A DNA stretch of 64,000 nucleotides, taken from positions 1 through 64,000 of the IMG/VR virus record IMGVR_UViG_3300008952_000004; one strand, 5' to 3'. The position numbers and the translations under genes were made by a program. The notes beneath the pieces were generated by a model that saw only the letters and a program-made list of their open reading frames with translations, was not told where the DNA came from and did no database searches. The stretch comes from a virus. The first letter of the stretch is position 1. The number at the start of each line of letters is the position of its first letter. Positions 2,667 to 57,375 of this stretch are shown piece after piece.

Positions 2667-2947
2667 GGTTTTTATTATTTTTAGTTTTACTATTAAACAT
2701 TCTAGATGCTAGTGCAACTATATGGTTTGTTGAGCAATCTGTAGCAGTTGAAGCTAATCCTTTGATGAAATATTTTCTAGATATGGGAATATTTCCTTTT
2801 TTAGCTGCAAAGCTATTAGTTGTAATAGTCAGTCTTAGAATCCTGTGGGTGTATAGAGACAGAAAAATAGCATTGTTTGGCGCTGGCTTATGTGCCATGG
2901 CATATTTATTGTTAGCGTCATATGTCGTTTACTCGCTTCAAAGCTAG
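2663..2947 (+). CDS. small membrane protein (DUF5658-like)
   Basis: Three hydrophobic segments and LDA.AT......EANPLM motif. Confidence 0.65.
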   Translation: MRFLLFLVLLLNILDASATIWFVEQSVAVEANPLMKYFLDMGIFPFLAAKLLVVIVSLRILWVYRDRKIALFGAGLCAMAYLLLASYVVYSLQS

Positions 2948-2951
2948 TTAT
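2944..2951 (+). promoter_or_regulatory. candidate phage late-promoter motif CTAGTTAT
   Basis: CTA[TGA]TTA motif 35 nt upstream of the likely start at 2986. Confidence 0.4.
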
Positions 2952-2985
2952 TATTAGTATATATGTAAAGAGCAATGCTTATAAG

Positions 2986-5097
2986 ATGAAATGGATAAAA
3001 AGACTATCTTTAATATTATTTGTTATCCTTTCAGTTGTGTTATGGCTTTCTGGTTGTAGCACTACGACAAATGGAGGGGAATCAAAAGATGTGGTATACC
3101 CAATTCCCGATGTCACAGATAAGATTAATGATATTCAACCGACTGAGGACACTCCGTCTGAACCAGATACTTGGTATCAAGACTGTGTTGAGTGTCAGTA
3201 TTATTTTTGTCCTCCATTAGACGCCATATGGCAAAAACAGATTTGTTTTGATAATTGTACTGATCCTCCAACACTAGTTCATGAGGGTGAATGTGTTGAA
3301 TACTTAGAATGTGATCCTCAAGACCCTATTATAGATGTTGACCTACCTTGTATCACAGCGAGTGGTTTTCCCGGCACTCAAGATAAAATCTGTAGCAAGG
3401 GAAAAATATATTATACTGATTGTGTCACAGAGTGTAAGGAAGAAATCTGTGACGGCATAGATAACGACTGTGACGATGAAATTGATGAAGGTTTTGATGA
3501 TATCCAAGAACTGTGCAATAATATTGACGATAACTGCAATGGCGTTGTAGACGAGGGAGAATGGGAGTGCGATAATGGGTGTGGTCCCGGTCCAAATCTG
3601 TGCGTAGCCGGAGAATTTGTTTGCATGGCACCTTTACCAGAAGAGGAAGTTTGCGACGGCATCGACAACGACTGTGATGGGGACATCGACGAAGGACAGT
3701 TAAATGCTTGTTTACAATGCGGTCCTGTACCAGAAGAGGTTTGCAATGGAATTGACGATGATTGTGATGGCGAGACAGATGAGGAATTAATTACCCCTTG
3801 TAGTACCGCATGCGGCGCAGGGTATGAAACTTGCGTCGGCGGCAATTGGGTATCTTGTAATGCACCGCCTGTATTTGATGAAATATGTGATGGTCTAGAC
3901 AACGATTGTGATGGACAGATTGATGAAGACTTACAATGTGTGTGCACAATACAAGATGTTGGCACTCTGTTTCCTTGTCAAGATAGCCCGCTAGTATGCG
4001 GACAAGGTTTTAAAACTTGCGAGTGTCTAGACCCAGAATGTAAGACAATTGTAACAACTCAATGTTATGCTCCTTGTTATTGGATGTCACAACCATATGG
4101 TTCAGACCCTAATTGTGATCCAACTATGGGAATGATATTGCAGCAAGAACAATGTAATAATTTTGATGATAATTGTAACCAAATGATTGACGAAAATCTT
4201 TTTGCAGCTTGTTATACCGGTCCTGAAGGTACGATCGGAGTCGGAATTTGTATACCGGGAGAGATGACTTGTGAGGCAGGCTCTTGGGGGAATTTTAATA
4301 ATAATACTGGATTATTCACTCCCGGTTTTTGTAAAGATGAAGTAACTCCACAAACAGAAATTTGCGATGGTGTTGATAACAATTGCGATGGTATTACAGA
4401 CTATGGTGAAGAACTAGAAGATACAGACATATTGTTTATTATCGACTGGTCCGGTTCGATGATCGATGAGATCGATGCGGTATTGATTGCCCTGAACCAA
4501 TTTGCGGCAACGTACTCAGACGAAACTGTGTTACAATGGGCAACCATCTTAGGTCCTCGTGATGAACCGGGTCAGGCTTGGGGCGACGATATTTTAGAAC
4601 TTTATCATAATATGAGTGGGTTTACTGATTTCCTGAATGCAATGAGCAATTTGACTGGAAATCCAAATGGCGGAAGTGAAATGCTTCTTGATGCGATTTA
4701 CCTAGCGATCCAAAATATCACAGCAGTACTCCCTGTATCAATTGCTGATCTCGATTGGAAAGATTGGAGCGTTGCCGAGTCAGTTCCTCATCATGACAAT
4801 TTTAATATTAATTGGCGCGGTGCCGCAGATAAAATTATAATTGTTTTTACAGATGAGAATCCTCAATCATATTTGAAAACCGAAGAGGGTATTGCGCTTA
4901 AAATGTTGGATATTATGCAAGCAGCACAAGGCACTCCACAATTAAAAATATATATATTTTCTACCAATGAAAACTGGGAGTGGGATGAGCTAGCAGTTTT
5001 AAGCGGCGGTAAGTATTATAATTTATCTAACAATCCTACAGAGGTTTATAATAGTTTAATGGAAATATTAGATGAAATCTGTAAGCCAAAACCATAA
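2986..5097 (+). CDS. lipoprotein with seven Cys/Asp putative metal-binding (MopE-like) repeats and C-terminal vWA domain
   Basis: MKWIKR + hydrophobic stretch + lipobox LSGC; repeats E.C[DN][GN].D[ND][DN]C[DN]...D; vWA MIDAS DILFIIDWSGSM and IVFTDE. Confidence 0.85.
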   Translation: MKWIKRLSLILFVILSVVLWLSGCSTTTNGGESKDVVYPIPDVTDKINDIQPTEDTPSEPDTWYQDCVECQYYFCPPLDAIWQKQICFDNCTDPPTLVHEGECVEYLECDPQDPIIDVDLPCITASGFPGTQDKICSKGKIYYTDCVTECKEEICDGIDNDCDDEIDEGFDDIQELCNNIDDNCNGVVDEGEWECDNGCGPGPNLCVAGEFVCMAPLPEEEVCDGIDNDCDGDIDEGQLNACLQCGPVPEEVCNGIDDDCDGETDEELITPCSTACGAGYETCVGGNWVSCNAPPVFDEICDGLDNDCDGQIDEDLQCVCTIQDVGTLFPCQDSPLVCGQGFKTCECLDPECKTIVTTQCYAPCYWMSQPYGSDPNCDPTMGMILQQEQCNNFDDNCNQMIDENLFAACYTGPEGTIGVGICIPGEMTCEAGSWGNFNNNTGLFTPGFCKDEVTPQTEICDGVDNNCDGITDYGEELEDTDILFIIDWSGSMIDEIDAVLIALNQFAATYSDETVLQWATILGPRDEPGQAWGDDILELYHNMSGFTDFLNAMSNLTGNPNGGSEMLLDAIYLAIQNITAVLPVSIADLDWKDWSVAESVPHHDNFNINWRGAADKIIIVFTDENPQSYLKTEEGIALKMLDIMQAAQGTPQLKIYIFSTNENWEWDELAVLSGGKYYNLSNNPTEVYNSLMEILDEICKPKP

Positions 5098-5142: not shown

Positions 5143-5150
5143 CTATTTAT
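5143..5150 (+). promoter_or_regulatory. candidate phage late-promoter motif CTATTTAT
   Basis: ACTATTTATA 7 nt before ATG 5158. Confidence 0.5.
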
Positions 5151-5157
5151 AGTCACT

Positions 5158-5554: not shown

Positions 5555-5562
5555 CTATTTAT
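5555..5562 (+). promoter_or_regulatory. candidate phage late-promoter motif CTATTTAT
   Basis: ACTATTTATA upstream of RBS GGAG and ATG 5584. Confidence 0.55.
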
Positions 5563-5583
5563 AATACAAACGGAGAACCCATA

Positions 5584-8500
5584 ATGAGATTTGGAAAACC
5601 TAGAAAAAATAAAAGACGAGTTAACCCCCGTTATCATCTAAATGAGACTGCGAAGATTGAGAACAATTCTTCCAAGAATATGCATGATGTGCAATTCTAC
5701 CTTGAAGAATTTTATCCCTTCGCCAAAGAAGCACTTGGCTTTGATCAGGATGCGACCATTGTCTTTGAATCTGATTTCAGCAATGCTAAAAACCCTCTAG
5801 GTAAAACCGCTCATTACGACCCGACCAATTCCACAGTTACTGTATACGTTGATAAGCGACACCCAAAAGATGTTATGCGCTCTGTCTCCCACGAACTCGT
5901 ACACCACGCCCAGAACGTGCGTGGTGACCTTCAGAGAGGCTCTATGGAGGAAGGTTATGCCCAAAACGACGATCACCTCAGAGAAATGGAAAAAGAGGCT
6001 TATACGAAGGGAAATATGCTGTTTCGGGATTGGACTGACAGTCGCAACAACCCCAACAACCAGAAAGACATTATGGCACGTATTATGCAAGAGTGGGGCT
6101 ACGATGAAGCTGCTCTGACAGAAGAAGGTGGTGGTTTCGAAGAAGGGCAACTTGTAAAGGTTGTTGCTAGCGCTCTTGCTGTTGATGGCGAGAAGAATGG
6201 AACTGTTGTTTCATACGAAGACCCCGCAGTTACAATTAAACTTGACGACGATCAGGAAGGCAAGTATGTTCCTGATGATAAAATGGTCAAAGTTAAAAAA
6301 GATTATGTTGAGCCCCGAGCAGAGGCAGGTTTTGATGATGTTATGGGCGAAGGTGGAGAGGGCGTTGATAGAGAATTTAATGTTGGCGATGAAATTATAG
6401 CTAACGGCTACCCCGGTTATATCACTGATTTAAGTATCCCCGGAATGGCAACGGTGAAATTAGGTAGAGGGGAGACTACCGTATCACTGAAATATGTACA
6501 TAAGAAAGACGACAAAGACAACCAGATGAGCGAGATGTACGACGACGATGATTTCGGAGACGACGATCTTGATATGGCTGCTTTGGAAAAAGAATTTCCT
6601 TGGCTTGCTAAAGATGTAAAGACCCGTGAGGCTCCCCCCGAGGTCGCAGCAGACCTTGCTGACGAATTCGGCAACAAGGGCGAGCCCGAAGATGAAGAAG
6701 AGCCTCTTGATGAAGGGGGCAAAAGATGGGCAGACTATGGAACGTCAGATGCGGAGACGGGACGCCCGCCAAGCCCACCGATGGAACGAACAAATCCGAC
6801 TGGCTACAATGAATATATGGAAGCCTATATGATGGCGATGGCAGACGCGAAAGCGAAACAGGGTACGTGGCATGACGATGAGCACGAGACATTGGCTGAT
6901 CGTAAATTTACTGACAGTATGAGAGAAAAACTTTCCGACGAAGAAGAAAAAGAAATAACAGCCAAAATGTCTAACAAAGAATTCGTCAAATATATGACAC
7001 ACGATAAGCACGTTGTACCCAATCTTAAAGGTGATATGGGAGAGATTCCCGGTATGGAAGGTCCGTTCCAATATAAGTCTGGTGCGGTTCTTTATTATGA
7101 CCCCAAGGAGGGCAAGTACTACGACAGGGGCAAAGACATGTATATTGACCATGAGGAAGCTTCACGACTTATTGCAGAAGATGATTTTGATCTATTTGAG
7201 CCCGAAGGTTTTGATTCAGATTATGATGAAGAAATAGTAACTCTCGTTCATGTCTTTTCTGGAAAAGAAATTGCTGTTGATGCATTCGCCGCTGAAGAAA
7301 AGTTGGCAACAGGAGAATGGGAACTGGTTCGAACGGTTGATGAGGAAGCTGTTTTAAATTTAGAAATGTCTGATACCGGCTCGGCTGAAGGCGATGAAGC
7401 GGGTAACTGTGAAGCAAAGGGCGGTAAATGGGACCCCGCGCAAGGAAAATGTGTTTATGAGGAAAAAAATATCATAGGAGATAATGAAATGAACATCGAA
7501 GAGATCGTGCGCGCCGCCGTAAGGCGAGCGCTTAAAGAGAAAAAGTATCGCCGCGAGGACGTGGGCGAAGAAGCTGAAGAAAAGAACGAAGCACATCAGC
7601 CATGGCGTGGCAAGAGAACTATGGCAGATCTTGACAAGGACGCCAAAACCAGAGAAACGGACCACCTCAAGAAAGACGACGATAAAAAGAATGTCGAAGA
7701 AGCAACAGAGGAAACAACCGAAGAGACGGTAACCGAGGGAAATTTTGCTGAGTATGGTAAGATTGATGCGGAAGATGGCAATCCTCCTTCAAAGATTGGT
7801 CGCGGGGACGAAGCATATATGGCAGCGTACAACGATGTTCTTATTGCAAGAGGTGAAGAGCCTCTTGACATTCAGAAGCCAGACCAAGCATATCTTGATG
7901 CTCTCGGACGTGGGCAGTTATCCAACGACTACGCCAAGAGAGAAGAACTTTCTGCTGGACAGGAAGAACTTGACCTTGATGACGATGGAAAAATCGAGCC
8001 CTCTGATTTCGCTGGGCTTCGTGCTGGAAAGACCGACGATGAGGTTGGCGAAGAAGCTGAAGAGAAAGAAAAGAAGGATGAATCTCTTATGGGAGAACAA
8101 AGCAATCCGCTTGAGTGGGCTGACACGAACGGCTTGTCGCACGATGTTGATAATGATCACAATATAATTGTGTATGCAACTGAAGAACAAGCAAATTCTA
8201 TTAGTCTACCACCCGGTTCAGAAGAGTGGTCTGTTGAACGAGACAACGACGGCGGATATATAATTTATACAAATCAATCTGTTGTGACAATGAAAGAAGA
8301 CACTCCAACTCCTGTTGCTCTTAAAGGACCATTTGATCCCTCGCAAATCCAATCAGTTGAAGATCCTGAGTATGGTGGCTTGATCCACACACTTCCTAAC
8401 GTTGAACTAACTGGTGATTTAGAGCAAGATGTATATGACATGATCGGTGGTGACGAAGAACTTTATAGCTGGCTTTGGGGCGAAATGGAAAGCGGCGACT

Positions 8501-8676
8501 CTATTACAGACGCAGCAGGACAGCATGTTTATTCTGGATCGGATGTACAAGACGTCATTAAAGCGCACGAAGAGAGCGGTCCCGGCGGCTCACATCACTA
8601 TCAAGAAAATATTTCTGACAAAGAATGGTATGATTCCAAGCTGTTCGAAAGTCTCAAAAGAAATTGGGCAAAATAG
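5584..8676 (+). CDS. 1030-aa acidic modular protein with N-terminal zincin (HExxH) domain; probable internal head protein
   Basis: SVSHELVHHAQ...MEKEAY zincin motif; later small modules (GAVLYYDPKEGKYYD; CEAKGGKWDPAQGKC; EF-hand-like LDLDDDGKIEPSDF) separated by acidic linkers. Confidence 0.7.
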   Translation: MRFGKPRKNKRRVNPRYHLNETAKIENNSSKNMHDVQFYLEEFYPFAKEALGFDQDATIVFESDFSNAKNPLGKTAHYDPTNSTVTVYVDKRHPKDVMRSVSHELVHHAQNVRGDLQRGSMEEGYAQNDDHLREMEKEAYTKGNMLFRDWTDSRNNPNNQKDIMARIMQEWGYDEAALTEEGGGFEEGQLVKVVASALAVDGEKNGTVVSYEDPAVTIKLDDDQEGKYVPDDKMVKVKKDYVEPRAEAGFDDVMGEGGEGVDREFNVGDEIIANGYPGYITDLSIPGMATVKLGRGETTVSLKYVHKKDDKDNQMSEMYDDDDFGDDDLDMAALEKEFPWLAKDVKTREAPPEVAADLADEFGNKGEPEDEEEPLDEGGKRWADYGTSDAETGRPPSPPMERTNPTGYNEYMEAYMMAMADAKAKQGTWHDDEHETLADRKFTDSMREKLSDEEEKEITAKMSNKEFVKYMTHDKHVVPNLKGDMGEIPGMEGPFQYKSGAVLYYDPKEGKYYDRGKDMYIDHEEASRLIAEDDFDLFEPEGFDSDYDEEIVTLVHVFSGKEIAVDAFAAEEKLATGEWELVRTVDEEAVLNLEMSDTGSAEGDEAGNCEAKGGKWDPAQGKCVYEEKNIIGDNEMNIEEIVRAAVRRALKEKKYRREDVGEEAEEKNEAHQPWRGKRTMADLDKDAKTRETDHLKKDDDKKNVEEATEETTEETVTEGNFAEYGKIDAEDGNPPSKIGRGDEAYMAAYNDVLIARGEEPLDIQKPDQAYLDALGRGQLSNDYAKREELSAGQEELDLDDDGKIEPSDFAGLRAGKTDDEVGEEAEEKEKKDESLMGEQSNPLEWADTNGLSHDVDNDHNIIVYATEEQANSISLPPGSEEWSVERDNDGGYIIYTNQSVVTMKEDTPTPVALKGPFDPSQIQSVEDPEYGGLIHTLPNVELTGDLEQDVYDMIGGDEELYSWLWGEMESGDSITDAAGQHVYSGSDVQDVIKAHEESGPGGSHHYQENISDKEWYDSKLFESLKRNWAK

Positions 8677-8682
8677 ACTTAA

Positions 8683-8820
8683 CAGGGATACTCTTTCCTG
8701 CTATAACTAATAGTGTAGATCTACTCACTGCGTGTTGCAGCACGTGCCAAAATATTCAGGCTTATTAAGTCAACGCACTGGTTTATTCTTTTAATGGGTG
8801 TTGACTAGTTTCGGGCTATT
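8683..8820 (+). ncRNA. candidate structured intergenic RNA / regulatory element
   Basis: ORF-free gap with several hairpins: CAGGGA/TTCCTG, GCGTGT-TGCA-GCACGT, AGTCAACGC/GTGTTGACT, TAGT-TTCGG-GCTA. Confidence 0.3.
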
Positions 8821-8834
8821 ATTAAAATAAATAA

Positions 8835-8877: not shown

Positions 8878-9174
8878 ATGAAAAACACACTGGATAAAAT
8901 TACAAAAAGATTTTTACTGAATGAAGAATATGATCCTACCACATTAAGTTCTATTCAAACTATTTTCGAAATGCTTTCATCTCTGAGAATTGCTACTCAA
9001 AGAGATACTAATAGAGTTGAAATTGCTAAAGAACAATTGGTTAAAGTTAGAAGACAAATTAAAAGACTTCAAGAAAGAAATAAAAATTTAGAAGAACAAG
9101 TAACCACCTTAGAAGAACAACTTAAAGTATTAGAAGAAACAAAAACATCTAAGAAAAAGAAAGGAAAGAAATAA
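8878..9174 (+). CDS. coiled-coil hypothetical protein
   Basis: Likely ATG 8878 after GGAG; heptad-rich, Lys-rich tail; stop abuts next ATG. Confidence 0.7.
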   Translation: MKNTLDKITKRFLLNEEYDPTTLSSIQTIFEMLSSLRIATQRDTNRVEIAKEQLVKVRRQIKRLQERNKNLEEQVTTLEEQLKVLEETKTSKKKKGKK

Positions 9175-12100
9175 ATGGGTGGTGCTGCTGGGCATATGAA
9201 CCATCTTTATGACAATCCAGATTTGTCATTTGATGAAATGTTCTCAATCATGAAGGCTGCTAGCAGAGGAAAGCTTCAGGGTACTGAAAAGCTTGATGGG
9301 GTAAATGTATTCTTAGGATTCAATGCAGGCGTAGCCAAAGCAGCAAGAAACGAAAATGATATTGCCAAAGGTGGTAAAGATCTTGAAGCTATTCTCGCAA
9401 GAGACTTTAAAGGTGGAGATAAGATTAAACAAGTCTATGCTAATGCTGTCAGGGCTTTTAATCTAGCTGTTGAATCACTAAGTGATGAAGAAAGAATACA
9501 AATATTTGGAGAAAGTGGTCAGAAGTTTTATAATGCTGAAATTCTCCACACAGACGCAAAGAATATTGTAAGTTACTCAGGAGATATGATCTCTATTCAT
9601 CGTCAAGGTCATAAAGAACTAAACCCAGAAACAGGAAAAGTAGAAGAATTTGACGCCAGTTCTACAGCAGAATCTTTAGATATGGCAATTAATAAATTTG
9701 AAATACAACTTTCAGATAAAGATACAAACTATAAATTCCGCAGAGCGGCTATTCAAAATCTCAAAGAATTAACAAACAAAGAAGATTTACAGATTGCCAT
9801 GGCAAAGGTCAACAAAGCTCTGAGCAGTGCCGGTGTTGATTCTGGTGACACTGTTGGTAATTATCTTAAAGCTGTTATTTCAAATCAATTAACAGAAATT
9901 CCAGAAGAATATTTAGATATTGCTGCCAGAAGAATGACTGGTGGGTTAGCTTGGAGATCTCCGGAGATTAATAGTCTCCCAAAAGATGTTAAAAAAACTT
10001 TATCTCAATATTGGAGACAAGCCAAGCCCATGTTAGAAAAGGCTATATATCCAATTGAAGAAGCTATTCATGAATTCTCAGTAGCGATGCTGGAGGGGAT
10101 GGAATCTGCATTTATTATTGATAATAGCGCAGAAGTAAAAAGTATAAAGAAGCAAGTAGATCAAGCTATTAAACAAATTAAGTCTTATGTTTCTCAGGGT
10201 CTTCCAGGGTCTGAGAGAGCAAATGAGATTCTTGTTAAGCAGCTTTCGAAATTAAAAGGTGTAGAAAACATTACAACTGCCTCAGAAGGATTTGTTTTCG
10301 AACACGAAGGTATACTTTATAAATTTACTGGTAATTTCGCTCCCATTAATCAGATTGTTAATCTTTATAAATGGGGTCGCGGCAAACAAGTTCCTCCCAT
10401 TAGTCAACAGTTGGAAGATACACCAGAAGAAGAATTGCAAGAGGTCGAGGCTCCCCTTGGGGATCTAGCAAGGGTTGCGATTGTGCCCGGTGGCTTCAAG
10501 CCTCCACACGCTGGTCATTTTCAAGGGGCTGAATGGTTCCTGCAAGGAAAGAAACAAGACGAAAAAGATAGTGTTATCGAACCAGCCGACATAGTATATG
10601 TTCTGATCTCGCCAAAAAGTCGTATGGGTCACTCTAAGGATGGTCGCGACGGACGAGGTGTTGAGGTTACAAAGGAAATGTCAAAGCAGCTTTGGGAACT
10701 TTATATAAAAGAGAACGGGCTCGCCGGAAAGATGAAAGCAATAGTTGTTAAAGACGACTCTCCGGTTAAAGCGGCATACGACTTCATGCAGAACCTCCGT
10801 CCCGGTCAAACACTCTTGCTCGGCTGCGGAGCCAAAGATGCTTGCGATAATCGTTTCGCAAATGCTCAAGCTTGGTCAGATAAGAATGGGTACGAATTAA
10901 ATATAGAAATTGTCAATACCCCAATGATGGCAGGCGGCGTAGATGGTACAACAATGCGTCGTTATATTGCAGATAATGATTTCGAAAGTTTTGCAAAATA
11001 TATTCCCCTTAAAGATGCGACTCAAGCTTGGAATATAGTTAGACCGGATCAAGAAGTATCAGCAGTAGAGCCAGAGGCAGAGGAGGCAGTGATGGAATCT
11101 TTTATGCCCTTTCTTCGTGGGGTGATTAGAAAACTCATCGTAGAAAAAGCTAAGTCAAAATCTCAGCAACGATTTATGGGCATGGTCAAGAAGTGTCAAG
11201 ACACGGGAGATTGCGCCAGTGACGCAGTAGAGAAGGCAGCAGGAAGTATGTCTAAAGAAGATACAGACGATTATGCTAGCACAAAACACAAAGGGCTTCC
11301 CGAGAAGGTAAAAGAAGAAGATGAACTGGAAGAACTTTCCGCGATGTCCTTGGGTTCTGTTGAGGGCGCAGCTTCTGCCTCCGGTAAGAAGAAAAAACCA
11401 TATAACGTCTGGAGTCCTTCTTCGCTTGAACAAGAATTAATTAATGAACTTAAACAAGAAACAAGTGATATTATTAATTTAGACTATGGCATGCAGTTAA
11501 CAAGACAAGATTTGCCACAAATTAAGTCGACAGACGTACCTGATTTTATGGAATGGCTTCGAGATGTGCACGGAATATCCACAGAAACGGATACGATTAA
11601 CCCAAGCGGGTTAGTGCCTACTCAAAAAGAAATTAATTTAGATAAGGTAGCAGGTATGGTTGCTAAAAAAGGATTAGAATCATTGGCGACGTCTAAACCT
11701 GTTATGGTTTCATCTGACGATTATTTGATCGACGGTCATCATCGATGGTACGCACTTATCGATGCTGAATATCCCTCTATTGATGTTATAAAAATTAATA
11801 TAGAAGCAGAACAACTTATCCCTTTAATGAAAAGCTGGGACAAGGCATCCTTTAAAAGTACGGTGGAAAAGAAATTATATGAGATGGTATTAGGATATAT
11901 TGAAGAAGCTCAATCATATGAAACGTTTAAGGGCGAAAAATTTGTTTTGGATCTCAAGGACTTGTCTGTTGTTCCAACCAAACACGGTGAGGAACGCCGA
12001 TTTAGACATAAGCAAGGGGGTCGAGGAATGACAATCTCGAAAGATAGTATTGTAAAAGCCTTAGATAAAGCTATGGGTCCAATTATGAACGATTATATGA

Positions 12101-12291
12101 ACGGCGAACTAGATAATAATGAAGCATTTCTAGTTAGAGCAATTCAAGGGAAACAACCAGCATTAAATGTTGTTGCTGCACTTAAAATGCAGAAGGGACC
12201 GGATTCTGTTAATATTATAACAGTTATGAGAAAAGACGACTTTAAAACGGATAATTTTGGAGCACAAAAAAAATACGAAGTAAGTATTTGA
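9175..12291 (+). CDS. multidomain protein: RNA-ligase-like nucleotidyltransferase + HxGH cytidyltransferase-like + DUF3008-like + ParB/Srx-like + C-terminal domain
   Basis: TEKLDGVN (ligase motif I), NAEIL, SEGFVF, LYKFTG; PGGFKPPHAGH (HxGH); KSKSQQRFMGMV; LVPTQKEI...SSDDYLIDGHHRW (ParB-like). Confidence 0.75.
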   Translation: MGGAAGHMNHLYDNPDLSFDEMFSIMKAASRGKLQGTEKLDGVNVFLGFNAGVAKAARNENDIAKGGKDLEAILARDFKGGDKIKQVYANAVRAFNLAVESLSDEERIQIFGESGQKFYNAEILHTDAKNIVSYSGDMISIHRQGHKELNPETGKVEEFDASSTAESLDMAINKFEIQLSDKDTNYKFRRAAIQNLKELTNKEDLQIAMAKVNKALSSAGVDSGDTVGNYLKAVISNQLTEIPEEYLDIAARRMTGGLAWRSPEINSLPKDVKKTLSQYWRQAKPMLEKAIYPIEEAIHEFSVAMLEGMESAFIIDNSAEVKSIKKQVDQAIKQIKSYVSQGLPGSERANEILVKQLSKLKGVENITTASEGFVFEHEGILYKFTGNFAPINQIVNLYKWGRGKQVPPISQQLEDTPEEELQEVEAPLGDLARVAIVPGGFKPPHAGHFQGAEWFLQGKKQDEKDSVIEPADIVYVLISPKSRMGHSKDGRDGRGVEVTKEMSKQLWELYIKENGLAGKMKAIVVKDDSPVKAAYDFMQNLRPGQTLLLGCGAKDACDNRFANAQAWSDKNGYELNIEIVNTPMMAGGVDGTTMRRYIADNDFESFAKYIPLKDATQAWNIVRPDQEVSAVEPEAEEAVMESFMPFLRGVIRKLIVEKAKSKSQQRFMGMVKKCQDTGDCASDAVEKAAGSMSKEDTDDYASTKHKGLPEKVKEEDELEELSAMSLGSVEGAASASGKKKKPYNVWSPSSLEQELINELKQETSDIINLDYGMQLTRQDLPQIKSTDVPDFMEWLRDVHGISTETDTINPSGLVPTQKEINLDKVAGMVAKKGLESLATSKPVMVSSDDYLIDGHHRWYALIDAEYPSIDVIKINIEAEQLIPLMKSWDKASFKSTVEKKLYEMVLGYIEEAQSYETFKGEKFVLDLKDLSVVPTKHGEERRFRHKQGGRGMTISKDSIVKALDKAMGPIMNDYMNGELDNNEAFLVRAIQGKQPALNVVAALKMQKGPDSVNIITVMRKDDFKTDNFGAQKKYEVSI

Positions 12292-13342: not shown

Positions 13343-13350
13343 CTATTTAT
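13343..13350 (+). promoter_or_regulatory. candidate phage late-promoter motif CTATTTAT
   Basis: ACTATTTATA upstream of AGGAGG and ATG 13386. Confidence 0.55.
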
Positions 13351-13385
13351 AAGCAGACATTAATGTCGCAGGAGGAAACGAAAAA

Positions 13386-16141: not shown

Positions 16142-16449
16142 GGGGGCGAACTGGTATCGACAGTGTGCCGAAAATTATTTGTGCAAGGCTGTGTGAGTGT
16201 ACACAGTAAAAACACTCAACTTTTTAACTGCAAACGATAACGTTGAAGTTGATTACGCCTTAGCTGCGTAATCTGGGGAAGCCATTCCTTATTAATCAAA
16301 ATGGCATATTGGGATTCCTACTTCCTTATAAGGTAGGTGGTTAGCGGGGGCATGTAGAGTTTGTCAGAGTACATAAACTGACTAACCTTGTGAATGACAA
16401 ATAAATGGAAACATATTGGACCGGGGTTCGACTCCCCGCGCCTCCACCA
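16142..16449 (+). ncRNA. ssrA: tmRNA (transfer-messenger RNA), tag peptide ANDNVEVDYALAA
   Basis: 5' GGGGGCG pairs with 3' CGCCTCC-A-CCA including G3.U70; GTATCGAC after 5' stem; T-arm CGGGG-TTCGACT-CCCCG; tag frame 16230-16271 ends YALAA*. Confidence 0.95.
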
Positions 16450-19124: not shown

Positions 19125-19132
19125 CTATTTAT
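19125..19132 (+). promoter_or_regulatory. candidate phage late-promoter motif CTATTTAT
   Basis: Back-to-back with the minus-strand copy; upstream of the 19148 gene. Confidence 0.45.
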
Positions 19133-19147
19133 TATAGAAATGATGGT

Positions 19148-52500: not shown

Positions 52501-53617
52501 AGGCGACATCAAAAAAGAGCAAAAGCACGAAGGCAAAGCTGACGCTACCTTTGGTTCTTTAGGGTTGAGTCCGAGCCAGACTGCTTTATATGAAGAGACA
52601 TTTGGGCAAGGTGCCGCGACTCATGACGATGTAAAAGGGACTATTCTCACAGGTGGACAGACGGATATAGAATATAGCATAAAGGATACTTATAAAGATC
52701 TGTCAGCAAAGAGCCCAATTGCAAAAAAAGAAAAAGCTTTTTGCATCATAGAGAAAGACTTGGCAGAGAGTAAACTCACACTTGGAGGCAAAATCCAAGC
52801 CAGTCCGGACGCAAAAGTGGAACAATACGACTATAAACAGGAGCACACACGAGGATACAGCAAAGAATTATATCCAATACCGCTTGTATCTGTTGAGCGC
52901 CCGCTCTCCGCAACAACTATGAAGGAGGCTCGCAAAGCATATTATGATGAAGAATATTTTCGGGGATTAATAGAAGGATCCGCCGAATTCAAATTTTTAT
53001 TTAAATATGTTTTTCCGCTTCCAAGAATGTTATCCCTTTTGACTATTTATAATTCAGAGTCAGTACTTAAAAATTCAGATGAAGTCGCTGGCGCTTTCGA
53101 TGGTACAAAGGGGGCATTGAGGAATTTGTTTTATACTCTTGATGTTGACGAGGGCGACTTAGCAACAAGCTGGTGGCAAGAAGAAAGTAAACTAGAAGAA
53201 GAAGGTAAAGATGCCCGCCATGAATTGGAACGTCAAGAAGCAGGTCTTTCACCTTTTAGCGCTCCCGGTTTAACCGCTATGGCAATGAGAACGGTTCCGT
53301 TGTTTGTTAGAGGTTATGCTGAGTACAGCGATCCGCATTATAAATTTGTTAGTCGCTTATCCGACCAAGGGGTTTTACCAACTGGAAAGACATGGGCTTC
53401 AGTACCTTTATTATGGCCCGTTAATTGGAGCATCGGTGGCATTCCCGGTTGGGGACCACCACTTGGTCCTTGGGGCATCGCGGCATATAGTATGCCACAG
53501 TTACCCGGTGATAGAAAACAACAAAATATTACCAAGCAAGAACAAGCAGCCGAAGTAGAAATGTTTAAACAAGCGTATACCGATAAAGAGTTAGACTGTG
53601 ATGAAGAGGAGAACTAA
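46556..53617 (+). CDS. 2353-aa giant virion (baseplate/tail-associated) protein
   Basis: Single uninterrupted ORF between spike-like gene and gp25-like gene; no catalytic motif recognised. Confidence 0.7.
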   Translation: MSHEEEKKQQQEEEAGTMYLKGIPIVSGSMLAVQALKNYNFKNLEEKTTALLDEAKGSKGSDTSMAATLAPYLGAAAALAKAAIPQYMTVLGGISKEFPAATHYIRDQTIGVPGAREEAVPADADAAVKEAEKVADQAAGGGDQAAGGGEIVFTDEEAGTIYANEPDENTDSSEVAGEDKKDDAPAGAQEIELPLQGTEVEKNPFHHYAEPWLKPKKYSLYSKPSRDSRWEVGHIFSHMGTDPQKPSDLTLVRVLKPFLGTKRDVHRIEVINPKPIMSAVFSAYKGPLYIESSACHPLPGIPEFEPISAAGASSAHGYPWPYDWKELGPIGTGEWCYLEEKQQMYYARLYQPGLRTKPIKLEEGSSWITGASAEIELPLPNPEDGYDGAKYDVPEPDNEKPFKTLKEFVEFADEKAILQRGVTQILHFYGRINAYESPPKDLLDMIVDTEMAYIPSPPHGFYLDPRTGYIDIAVALRASYVNAIPRYLYSDDDLNKYFSNTDGYSYSFAYSTLQAKIDFITKHTTDRATELQPKFPKQAAKLIRVVQYLNSFPARFKRFVLLNEVPEEELTGTDPHFELGFSKDFQISYVLMGKADKRSTPLTIALPMLTSVNQRPGTTAIASHHFLYSFEDMEKKVQDPALTAIEFAQRYYYPVTAIVFKPTEAESEENPRTTTPAIAQAAAVSKHEDPAGVGKSTSQIMREKQSLDNVDHKIQLSKSREKEQEFTGDNIIEDIEFLKAQAKDPEGIYKHVLNKTSIKELSAIALADLTKDFGFADQQKMVLDSVITKATGAQIEKMASIIQEKYPGEYSKALAKELDAAQEYFETTGTPKEGTVPPAIKNSDGSINDVKLARAIETNMALSGWHKNIQSPQQNQGQQISEEMSPDQKKQMRYFSGFEYGSGLKFGEGYSLPTVDGILSDNTTISSPARKADILKRLTNNSGNEFKLPISILEKTILPIVPYADVRSTLSQYMGNVNDVMEEIQEPTSLKELAPPTVTLPDNSFTSDPTPGVVDAVVAGIREAIAKGLIATITMVLDRIKKSAADAFGERFGAMVGKIPLDMIKAAFHNAGVPPGTGAEFFENLAKQATVSEMEDLFAGRTSEETDSLVMVTAGMTPGMFEHLQNISNAFDNLSDLVEPDIFRKARESEAEAEVEDAPWSGLLCEDDDFPDEDNRDRTGLEEAQHERDRDLANRLKDLIDGANNLLSDIPSTMSDCGEQGLISRDPPSMQMANKLALDTIFESVEMAFSQDATGFMDSLLLKKSRDAKKGDPDWIPTYGKELGIDQMTGAKIDPNPTKKMAVAHNKKNSKIEVSVLPSLKKNLSDVHKKNFKLYSEYVGDEEKGEGITWISMSGEVDPKKTKLPITFAAEEAQLAQAKATVKKIQNKMSDLNSSGLGLGADALHHLLNDMEKADNAFTAAKEVLDQAIKAAPSKIKKDKSFDLSNKVEEKLLEFSMTWPESSGPVVDRHSVTLGDGDQKYVLANKTKSPSNNLSETTFYKILPGSTGELGVYRTAQSQAFANYITNRFTNAGYALAGIPEDFEMSTGFQEYALNWEQVFFRLFKKTARQASLSNLFELEELLEVSLSKKYEKTLCAPDPEAFDLLSVSETKEEVEDDYEQSCKPSNKSDAAGSPFEEAALGGVLKVYLRLCVAEVLLRSIFIYSQFNPEEVFEDGLFMDYVVDMLRKDLENSDPDFFSRLKKQAQIIISNKRKSGDLKNIYNINDMTLLDDLDETGYQEERANAAFKYIVLEQAADLSYKLQQALGTQAPKIYKRFLNSTGTPEPFNIVTPQTSLGSGWIRTIDAPKASVVGTGDQRFIARNEDKVKNLGGNQSTGTSQTTWEGEITYDTARLMYPDLAMVGGTFVLEKYVRVEDLDRLPDDFKDPYGFRLRHGGPDAPDEGPGEPDTLASWCKTTPHLSGVVNISAFRQYLDQVFEIHPADAKVSSFFKPLKFGMRLMWIPPTNQNFKAQLYASETSEVVGDIKKEQKHEGKADATFGSLGLSPSQTALYEETFGQGAATHDDVKGTILTGGQTDIEYSIKDTYKDLSAKSPIAKKEKAFCIIEKDLAESKLTLGGKIQASPDAKVEQYDYKQEHTRGYSKELYPIPLVSVERPLSATTMKEARKAYYDEEYFRGLIEGSAEFKFLFKYVFPLPRMLSLLTIYNSESVLKNSDEVAGAFDGTKGALRNLFYTLDVDEGDLATSWWQEESKLEEEGKDARHELERQEAGLSPFSAPGLTAMAMRTVPLFVRGYAEYSDPHYKFVSRLSDQGVLPTGKTWASVPLLWPVNWSIGGIPGWGPPLGPWGIAAYSMPQLPGDRKQQNITKQEQAAEVEMFKQAYTDKELDCDEEEN
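46961..47002 (+). repeat. 21-bp tandem duplication (DQAAGGG x2) in giant protein
   Basis: GATCAAGCAGCAGGCGGTGGA followed by GATCAGGCAGCAGGCGGTGGA. Confidence 0.85.
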
Positions 53618-55924: not shown

Positions 55925-57375
55925 TGGCAATCAAACGTTACATTGCAACTAAAGACACTACGATAGCAAATAGTTATCAAGCGAATCTATCGACAACAGC
56001 CTCTGGGTCAAACATGGGCGCCGCCGATGTAACTGAAGTATTCTCTATATATGGTCAAGTATCATCTAGTACATCAGGAAATTCACTTGAAGCTTCCCGC
56101 GCTCTATACTACTTTGATGTTGCCGATATTACCACGGACAGGACTAATGGAGACATTCCTAAATCCGGATCAGTGGATTTCGTATTAAAGTTAACAAATG
56201 CAGAACACCATAAGACAACTCCACAAAATTATGATATGCGAGTGATCGCAGTTTCAGAAAGTTGGACTGAGGGGTCCGGTTTAGATTTAGATAATTATAG
56301 AGATATTGGAGAATGTAATTGGAATTATCGCACATCTGCTAACGCTTGGGGAAATGGTAACGCAGCAGCAAAGGGCGGCGTTTTCCATACAGGAAGTGTG
56401 GAAGCGTGGTCTAATGAAATACAATTCAAACAAGCGTTTGGAGAAGACGTGACAGAAGATCTAGAAATAGTTATTACTCCTTTGGTTGAACACTGGATCG
56501 CAGGCACTGTTTCTAATAATGGAATAGGTGTCTTATTGTCTGGCTCATATGAGGATGGTACTAGCCTTCGGTCTTATTATACTAAAAAGTTCTTCGCTAG
56601 GAATAGTGAGTATTTCTTTAAAAGACCGAGAATCGAAGCTCGTTGGGATTCTTCTAAAAAAGATGACCGCGCAAATTTTTATGCCAGCAGTTCTCTGGGG
56701 GACACTGAAAATACAAATACAATATATCTATATAATAATCTTCGAGGACAGCTTACCAATATCCCAGGCTTGCATGCCCGCAACACACTAGTTGTTAAAC
56801 TTTATCGCGATGCTCTTACTGACAGTGCGCCTGTGGAAGTCACAGGTGGTTTGACATCAGACACTGGAATTTATACCGCATCGTTAGCCATGGACACGTC
56901 GGCTTCCGTATTGTATGATGTATGGTCGACTGGCTCGATACAGTTTTATACTGGTTCCATCACTGTTAAAAGTTTTGCAGCTACTGCCGAAAATCCTAAC
57001 AGCACTTACAACACATCTATTGTAAATTTAAAACCTTCGTATTCAACAAAAGAAACGGCGCGATTTCGCTTCTTTGTTAGAAAACAAAATTGGACTCCCA
57101 CTATTTATAATAAGGCTACAGAAACTTTAAATAGCGAAGTAATAAGCTCTGCGTATTATAAAATTTTCAGGATTTCAGACAACTATGAGGTAATGCCATA
57201 TGGGACAGGAAGCGAACAGCACACTAAAATGTCATACGATCAGAGCGGAAGTTATTTTGATTTAGATATGAGTATGCTTCAGAAGGACTATGCTTATGGT
57301 TTATCATTAACATATTATTTGAATGGAAAATATGTAGAACAACCAGAGGTATTTAAATTTAGAGTAGAAGGATAA
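55924..57375 (+). CDS. baseplate-associated structural protein
   Basis: MAIKRYIATKDTTI, SRAL..FD, YTKKFFAR.SEYFFKRP.IEARWD; translationally coupled to gp6-like gene. Confidence 0.75.
   Translation: MAIKRYIATKDTTIANSYQANLSTTASGSNMGAADVTEVFSIYGQVSSSTSGNSLEASRALYYFDVADITTDRTNGDIPKSGSVDFVLKLTNAEHHKTTPQNYDMRVIAVSESWTEGSGLDLDNYRDIGECNWNYRTSANAWGNGNAAAKGGVFHTGSVEAWSNEIQFKQAFGEDVTEDLEIVITPLVEHWIAGTVSNNGIGVLLSGSYEDGTSLRSYYTKKFFARNSEYFFKRPRIEARWDSSKKDDRANFYASSSLGDTENTNTIYLYNNLRGQLTNIPGLHARNTLVVKLYRDALTDSAPVEVTGGLTSDTGIYTASLAMDTSASVLYDVWSTGSIQFYTGSITVKSFAATAENPNSTYNTSIVNLKPSYSTKETARFRFFVRKQNWTPTIYNKATETLNSEVISSAYYKIFRISDNYEVMPYGTGSEQHTKMSYDQSGSYFDLDMSMLQKDYAYGLSLTYYLNGKYVEQPEVFKFRVEG

Follow-up and report, generated by a model that had tools for sequence, protein, structure and literature searches.

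A candidate RNA-end repair polyprotein with a copy of the capsid maturation junction in a T4-like marine phage

Why does a T4-like phage carry several nucleotide-handling domains in a single protein chain, and does that chain travel inside the capsid? The question is raised by P0001, a 1038-residue open reading frame (ORF) in a 64-kb stretch of viral DNA (the window), which is the first 64 kb of the 189,713-bp record IMGVR_UViG_3300008952_000004, rated complete. A reading made from the sequence alone had proposed that RNA-ligase-like, HxGH nucleotidyltransferase, DUF3008-like and ParB/Srx-like domains and a further C-terminal domain are joined here in a probable virion polyprotein. Our computational analysis finds all of these domains in one intact ORF, and the inventory is upheld by fold and profile tests. 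As the best explanation, held tentatively and at somewhat short of an even chance, we propose that P0001 supplies a T4-like marine myovirus with several enzymes for RNA-end repair in one polyprotein, which the head protease would process and which is probably packaged. The parts of the protein, with amino-acid (aa) numbering of P0001, are as follows.

9175–12291, + strand: P0001, 1038-aa multi-domain ORF (ATG at 9175, stop at 12291, no internal stops)
9175–10419, + strand: predicted RNA-ligase-fold covalent nucleotidyltransferase domain (aa 1–415)
10429–10449, + strand: linker 1 (aa 419–425), with a conserved hydrophobic-x-Glu (h-x-E) triplet followed by Ala; local conservation 0.29
10456–11094, + strand: HxGH ('HIGH') alpha/beta nucleotidyltransferase of the PPAT/NaMNAT/NMNAT type (aa 428–640)
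11089–11145, + strand: conserved amphipathic helix ending L-I-x-E (aa 639–657)
11134–11319, + strand: DUF3008-like peptide (aa 654–715)
11323–11409, + strand: capsid-mimic junction (aa 717–745), L-E-E (718–720), then L-S-A-M-S-L-G-S-V-E-G, then a Lys-rich patch
11461–11871, + strand: ParB/sulfiredoxin-fold domain with a D-G-H-H-R box (aa 763–899)
11947–12288, + strand: C-terminal alpha+beta domain, no assigned family (aa 925–1038)

First, the predicted structure of residues 1–415 shows the nucleotidyltransferase fold of the covalent nucleotidyltransferase superfamily. The AlphaFold2 (AF2) model, calculated with a 45-sequence alignment as input, has a predicted local distance difference test (pLDDT) value of 95 and a predicted template modelling (pTM) value of 0.90. 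The top 13 structural matches of this model are all ligases; those from Foldseek are mostly RNA ligases, with weak E-values. The motifs quoted in the sequence-only reading are present as well: motif I at aa 38–44, NAEIL at 120–124, SEGFVF at 370–375 and YKF at 382–384 and, further downstream, FKPPHAGH at 441–448 and DGHHRW at 853–858. The ligase motifs are K39-x-D41-G42-x-N44 (I), E122 (III), E371-G372 (IV) and K383 (V). Among 45 diverse family members, K39, D41, G42, N44, E122, E371 and K383 are invariant and G372 is nearly so; in a second set of 45 members, K39, D41, G42, E122, E371, G372 and K383 are again invariant. Motif V has one Lys only and reads K-x-T (Y-K-F-T-G) rather than K-x-K. 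A helical insert of ~160 residues, at about aa 200–360, lies between motifs IIIa and IV, and the domain also has a conserved His-rich N-terminal element, G-G-x-x-G-H-x-x-H-L-Y-D-N.

We compared this domain with the known ATP-dependent RNA ligases T4 Rnl2 (1s68, 2hvq), TbREL1 (1xdn), T4 Rnl1 (9do4), Naegleria Rnl5 (5cot), archaeal Rnl3 (5d1o) and the fungal Trl1 ligase domain (6n0t, 9qw7). It shares with them the nucleotidyltransferase fold, as predicted, and the order of the motifs, and its Lys of motif I, Glu of motif III, Glu-Gly of motif IV and Lys of motif V are invariant or nearly so. However, P0001 differs from these enzymes in its ~160-residue helical insert, its His-rich element and its K-x-T motif V, and it shows neither significant sequence similarity to them nor a match to a Pfam ligase model. 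It also has no oligonucleotide-binding (OB) or other known C-terminal ligase module, and is paired with the HxGH nucleotidyltransferase. Sequence searches of Pfam, NCBIfam and the PDB give no match for the ligase-like domain, and the hidden Markov model (HMM) of the Rnl2 family, RNA_ligase PF09414, detects nothing in the whole genome at E<=0.01. When the PDB is searched with the P0001 sequence or the family profile, the HxGH domain alone is detectable, and neither a ligase nor a ParB match appears. An hhalign comparison of the family with T4 Rnl2 places motif I on motif I of Rnl2, at a non-significant probability of 10%. The N-terminal domain is predicted to form a new clade of ATP-dependent RNA-ligase-fold enzymes within a superfamily that is itself of an already known kind.

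The same fold could instead act on DNA. On this view, DNA ends would be sealed or adenylylated by the ligase-like domain, with the ParB-like domain serving as a DNA nuclease or DNA-binding NTPase, and the two would guard or process the ends of the injected genome. This is quite improbable in our estimation, since both structure searches rank RNA ligases above DNA ligases, the OB domain is absent and the fused partners in the family are RNA-healing 2H phosphoesterases.

The ligase-like family is very large, with 1499 representatives (E<=1e-3) in a library clustered at 50% identity; almost every one stems from an uncultivated phage, and our literature searches turned up no description of the family. 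If its members are RNA ligases, a major clade would be added to the Rnl1, Rnl2, Rnl3, Rnl5 and Trl1 groups. The full-length orthologues of P0001 (35–88% identity) are found solely in metagenomic or viral contigs of up to 220 kb, and many contigs with close relatives come from marine samples, TARA among them. The ligase-like domain occurs either standalone, in proteins of 430–480 aa, or fused to other domains. One metagenomic relative of 1288 aa (P0150) has an N-terminal Peptidase_M23 domain (E 7e-21), 470 residues ahead of its ligase-like domain (aa 624–1034); M23 peptidases are typical of virion-borne cell-wall-degrading proteins. LigT/2H phosphoesterase domains are present in 3 of the 45 sampled family members (P0094 and P0134 are examples).

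The HxGH domain carries both signatures of its family, the first being G-G-F-K-P-P-H-A-G-H (H-A-G-H at aa 445–448) and the second D-G-T-T-M-R-R (T-T-M-R-R at aa 592–596), together with similarity at the profile level. Over the whole domain, the family profile matches PPAT (3nd5, E 1.2e-9), NaMNAT (8aih, 2.6e-7) and archaeal NMNAT (1f9a, 3e-6) in the PDB. The Pfam model CTP_transf_like (PF01467) is present in 18 of 45 family members, P0001 by itself falling below the Pfam threshold. In Microcystis phage Mel-JY01, the ligase-like and HxGH domains stand in reversed order; thus, the pairing of the two domains is conserved and their order is not. The DUF3008-like peptide that follows scores 21.3 bits against DUF3008 (PF11450), below the 24-bit cut-off, and matches phrog_30268 (E 2e-15) and phrog_26015 (E 7e-15) among the PHROGs. 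It is 67% identical to an ORF of cyanophage S-IOM18, and the gap profile shows it in only ~60% of the orthologues. Literature searches on DUF3008, Mel-JY01 and fusions of a ligase with NMNAT found nothing relevant.

These matches raise the possibility that nucleotide-cofactor synthesis is the key activity. The HxGH domain would then be a true NMN or NaMN adenylyltransferase restoring NAD+ after its depletion by a host defence, and the ligase-like domain would serve other adenylyl transfer. The HxGH signature does resemble that of archaeal NMNAT and NadR, the profile matches include NaMNAT and NMNAT, and the tblastn matches of P0001 include Flavobacterium phage homologues annotated as NMNAT. 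However, the best profile match is PPAT, and PPAT, NaMNAT and NMNAT all match similarly, so that they do not single out a substrate. An NMN-producing enzyme is not seen adjoining the gene. In more than 1000 clusters the HxGH domain is coupled to one of the ligase fold, and this, together with the 2H phosphoesterase fusions, suits RNA-end chemistry better; judged by domain architecture, these fusions favour RNA-end repair over NAD restoration, which we regard as improbable.

In the C-terminal third, the predicted structure of aa 763–899 shows the fold and the G-x-x-R box of the ParB/Srx superfamily. CTPases, sulfiredoxin and free serine kinases are among its neighbours in structure, and because they are so varied, NTPase, phosphotransferase and nuclease activities are all possible. 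The domain shares its fold and the nucleotide-binding box (D-G-H-H-R in P0001) with ParB CTPases, sulfiredoxin, SerK/SbnI and PadC. In contrast to these proteins, it has no helix–turn–helix or dimerisation domain and is fused to a further C-terminal domain, in which H937, R941, R944, H945 and N998 are nearly invariant. DUF4258 and RNase-toxin-like domains were considered as possible families for this C-terminal domain, and the PF14076 HMM has no match in the genome. In Paraglaciecola phage GD1, a ParB-like homologue stands alone, and its gene overlaps another that is annotated LigT/'RNA phosphodiesterase'; the annotated neighbourhoods of the standalone homologues in Aeromonas phage 65, RSP15, Vibrio YC and Salmonella phage 38 are uninformative. 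The fold assignments of the ParB/Srx and C-terminal parts are new to this analysis.

A role in RNA repair, and in tRNA repair in particular, is favoured because the domains to which family members are fused suggest that RNA ends are healed and sealed. In the mechanism that we propose, the ligase-like domain would form a lysyl-nucleoside monophosphate intermediate at K39 and seal broken RNA, most plausibly tRNA, while working coupled with the NMNAT/PPAT-like HxGH nucleotidyltransferase. The ParB/Srx-type NTP-binding domain and the His/Arg-rich domain behind it may prepare the RNA ends. The heal-and-seal logic would be that of T4 Pnkp with Rnl1 and of fungal and plant Trl1 (ligase–kinase–cyclic phosphodiesterase), and relatives of P0001 fuse the ligase to 2H phosphoesterases. 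The accessory domains are different, being HxGH, ParB/Srx and His/Arg domains in P0001 and kinase, HAD or 2H domains in the T4 and Trl1 systems. The tRNA repair enzymes of T4 are made after infection and are not packaged. The sole polynucleotide-kinase-type candidate in this genome is an AAA_33/zeta-toxin-like P-loop kinase of 381 aa (L123:1366-2511, genome ~138.3–139.5 kb), and neither the 2H phosphoesterase HMM (PF13563) nor the Rnl2-type HMM has a match in the genome.

Whether P0001 is head cargo has to be judged from its linkers and from the head genes of the phage. The genome outside the window encodes a T4-type head, and PhoH, baseplate wedge proteins and a late sigma factor are also encoded in the same genome.

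Genome 88.8–89.9 kb: T4-type portal gene
Genome 92.3–92.7 kb: S77 prohead protease gene (PF03420, E 4e-37)
Genome 99.4–101.3 kb: gp23-type major capsid protein gene

The sequence-only reading had placed Glu-site linkers between the domains. P0001 holds 21 [LIVM]-x-E sites, and a bare h-x-E triplet is therefore expected by chance and uninformative. In 29 non-redundant orthologues, three sites are conserved within otherwise poorly conserved linkers, at about aa 425 (72%), 657 (100%) and 758 (90%); VME-641 and LYE-903, also put forward in that reading, fall short of this conservation. The strongest site, L-E-E at 718–720, was missing from its list of linkers and stands directly ahead of a capsid-like motif. 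This motif, SAMSxGxVEG, lies in the disordered linker aa 717–733, and the AF2 pLDDT is below 50 across aa 704–744. Among all six-frame ORFs, it is found elsewhere in the genome once only, in the major capsid protein. When the latter is aligned to T4 gp23 with MAFFT, the motif follows immediately on the residue that corresponds to E65, where gp21 is known to cleave (PMC5694885). The five capsid-protein residues before the motif are identical to residues 6–10 of T4 gp24, which lie within the 10–20-residue leader removed by gp21 (PMC5694885). A position-specific scoring matrix (PSSM) of the junction, built from 62 other family members, gives 43.1 for P0001, 19.5 for the capsid site and 11.7 for the next site, and the maxima on five shuffles range from -2.4 to 11.7. 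The third-best match is in a 168-aa ORF outside the window (G000:C1:129554), with I-K-E followed by a Gly/Ala/Ser-rich stretch, and is probably due to chance because its score equals that of the best shuffle.

Of 251 family proteins, at least 102 have the junction, invariably on the C-terminal side of the two enzyme domains; 24 of them have it no more than 60 residues from their C-terminus. Lys and Arg make up a fraction of 0.20 of the 30 residues that follow, compared with a family baseline of 0.13. The ligase-family protein has the junction in all 11 related viral genomes in which the capsid protein has it (nine clear, two degenerate), whereas in three genomes with divergent capsid junctions the ligase-family protein is without it. 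The capsid junction is nearly identical among the 11 informative genomes, and since the genomes are related to one another, the pattern of 11 against three is not an independent statistical test. The accessible h-x-E sites and the cognate S77 prohead protease in the genome are features of T4-type processed internal proteins, and from the linker sequence, cleavage of P0001 by a gp21-type protease after E720 is predicted. P0001 is probably prohead cargo that is cut there, because its disordered linker copies the capsid maturation junction. In the proposed pathway, it would enter the prohead with the junction copy in its linker, the protease would cut after E720 and perhaps also near E425, E657 and E758, and the ready-made enzymes would be delivered together with the phage DNA.

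The neighbouring genes bear on this proposal, and three of them are listed here.

5584–8676, + strand: orf1030, with a late-promoter motif ahead of it at 5555–5563
8878–9174, + strand: orf98, small coiled-coil protein with a Lys-rich tail; its stop abuts the start of P0001
12303–13331, + strand: orf342, acidic helical protein; its first 11 residues form a leader ending F-I-K-E

The leader of orf342 resembles the capsid-targeting sequence (CTS) of T4 IPII/IPIII, which ends F-I-A-E. In T4, the substitution E10D blocks processing of the CTS. With a leader PSSM from 18 related loci, the orf342 N-terminus is the sole match in the genome (26.4; shuffles at most 12.4). The real T4 CTS has a low score of 3.5 with this matrix; thus, the likeness is qualitative and concerns the N-terminal position, the length and the F/L-I-x-E end. 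Residues 750–758 of P0001 were also considered as a capsid-targeting-like sequence and were rejected at a PSSM score of -3.0. In 38 of the 251 family proteins, the orf342 module, its leader still discernible, follows the junction directly as part of one chain, and in 23 loci it is separate. The junction therefore marks a boundary at which the parts are separate genes in some phages. The gene order around P0001 is orf1030 N-domain, orf98, ligase-family gene and orf342, and it recurs in part across 80 related viral loci, with the orf1030 N-domain upstream in 33, orf98 immediately upstream in 20 and orf342 downstream in 46. The orf1030 protein has a basic N-terminus and a zincin-like domain at aa 22–160 (H-E-x-x-H at ~aa 103–107), and the remainder is acidic and modular. 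Neither orf342 nor the orf1030 N-domain has a match in the PDB, Pfam, PHROG or NCBIfam. Findings new to this analysis are the conserved four-gene neighbourhood, the mimicry of the capsid junction and the leader of orf342 together with its Rosetta-stone fusion.

A homologue of the HxGH domain is physically present in virions. The gp140 'cytidylyltransferase' of the T4-like cyanophage S-SZBM1 was detected by liquid chromatography–mass spectrometry (LC-MS) in CsCl-purified virions (PMC9146016). Compared with the family profile, this protein aligns to its HxGH part (hhalign probability 96%, E 2e-9). In contrast to the fused domains of P0001, gp140 and its neighbour gp141 are the products of separate genes, and gp140 has its own N-terminal leader, ending F-I-I-E. 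The gp141 gene (P0296; L122:5478-6671, - strand; DUF6267, PF19782) overlaps that of gp140, and the motifs of its product follow the ligase order, with a His-rich N-terminal element, K-W-D-G and E-G-F-V ... K-L-V. An hhalign comparison of the P0001 N-domain family with DUF6267 is not significant (probability 1.3%), its register pairing the His-rich element and motif I. The PF19782 HMM has no match in the genome, and a control search was likewise without any match. Judging from the order of these motifs, DUF6267, a very abundant cyanophage family, may be an unrecognised ligase-fold family. The link to the published virion proteomics is new, and S-SZBM1 offers a cultured entry point to the system.

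T4-style processed head cargo is of a known kind. Among packaged proteins, T4 IPI–III and Alt have in common with this phage the S77 protease, the leader (F-I-K-E in the partner gene and F-I-A-E in T4) and h-x-E sites in disordered linkers. The signal of P0001 is different from that of the T4 internal proteins, as it is internal and copies ~12 residues of the capsid maturation junction. To our knowledge, such an internal copy of the capsid junction has not been described for T4. T4 Alt is an example of a packaged enzyme. It is processed by gp21 at its C-terminus (PMC9026906), a precedent for sites away from the N-terminus.

Several observations weigh against packaging. P0001 has no N-terminal targeting leader of 10–20 residues with an I/L-x-E end, and its N-terminus is a conserved part of the ligase domain. 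The promoters of the region, listed here, add a second difficulty.

8801–8828, + strand: best sigma-70-like promoter of the 5–14 kb region (TTGACT, 16 nt, TAAAAT; 10/12 matches)
5143–5151, 5555–5563, 13343–13351, 19125–19133, 53043–53051 and 57101–57109 of the window, coding strand: late-promoter-like motif sites

The sigma-70-like site stands upstream of the three-gene unit orf98, P0001 and orf342, and from its sequence the promoter nearest to P0001 looks early. The late-promoter-like motif of this phage, (A)CTATTTAT(A/T), precedes orf1030, orf384 and the head genes, in the latter case at 93.5, 97.8, 98.4, 104.0 and 107.0 kb of the genome; the motif CTATTTAT(A/T) was not found directly upstream of P0001. 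The canonical T4 late promoter TATAAATA was also considered as the late motif of this phage and was dismissed, as it is not enriched on the + strand. Late transcription of P0001 would need read-through from 5555, and there is no terminator-like site on the + strand between the late-promoter gene orf1030 and the P0001 unit. Finally, mimicry alone is no proof of encapsidation, because the T4 prohead protease can also cut cytoplasmic proteins outside the capsid at exposed loops, CD-NTases among them (PMC12991175), and because fusion to the T4 gp23 N-terminus directs proteins to GroEL (PMC3012670).

The enzymes might thus be purely cytoplasmic in the infected cell and never packaged. The capsid-like junction would then serve either as a late-stage switch, with the head protease separating or inactivating the modules once proheads form, or as a chaperonin-recruiting element that acts like the gp23 N-terminus. 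The missing leader, the sigma-70-like promoter directly upstream and the two T4 precedents all suit this explanation. However, orf342, which lies adjacent and is often fused, has a leader like those of T4 internal proteins, cyanophage virions contain a homologue of the HxGH domain, and the GroEL-targeting region in T4 has not been mapped to the junction motif. We consider purely cytoplasmic enzymes unlikely, though worth serious attention, and continue to prefer packaged and processed enzymes. The virion-polyprotein idea, which first rested on common h-x-E triplets, now has independent if indirect support in the capsid-junction copy, the leader and fusions of orf342 and the virion-borne homologue, and the absence of a leader from P0001 and the type of its nearest promoter remain on the other side. 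An injected anti-defence role, by tRNA repair or NAD restoration, had also been proposed; like the substrate, the cleavage and the packaging, it is inferred, while the folds, the catalytic motifs, the motif mimicry, the synteny and the gene fusions are shown.

A more specific version of the packaged proposal assigns a step to each domain. P0001 would be a capsid-delivered heal-and-seal RNA repair machine built of non-orthologous parts and loaded by an internal or C-terminal copy of the capsid junction with a basic tail, which the prohead protease would remove. The ParB/Srx domain would be the 5'-end kinase; Srx and the free serine kinases do use the ParB/Srx fold for phosphotransfer. The role of the His/Arg domain would be that of a 2',3'-cyclic phosphodiesterase or an end-trimming RNase, the HxGH domain would nucleotidylate the 5'-phosphate end or make the ligase cofactor, and the ligase clade would seal. 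The injected kit would restore tRNAs even after anticodon nucleases had stopped phage protein synthesis. That all of these assignments hold together has a low probability in our view. If the junction mimic directs processing or packaging, it would be a new cargo-loading route in T4-like phages. Abundant marine phages would then inject repair enzymes along with their DNA, which would bear on phage escape from tRNA-cleaving defences that act before any phage protein is made. The junction, with one Glu and ~12 residues, is a concrete handle on the question.

Two further features of the window lie outside this gene cluster. The 64-kb window contains no tRNA genes; ARAGORN finds a phage-encoded transfer-messenger RNA at 16142–16449 with the tag ANDNVEVDYALAA. 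A 735-aa protein encoded at 2890–5097 has six MopE-type Cys-rich metal-binding repeats (Pfam E 2e-26), a weak vWA match and a lipoprotein-like N-terminus.

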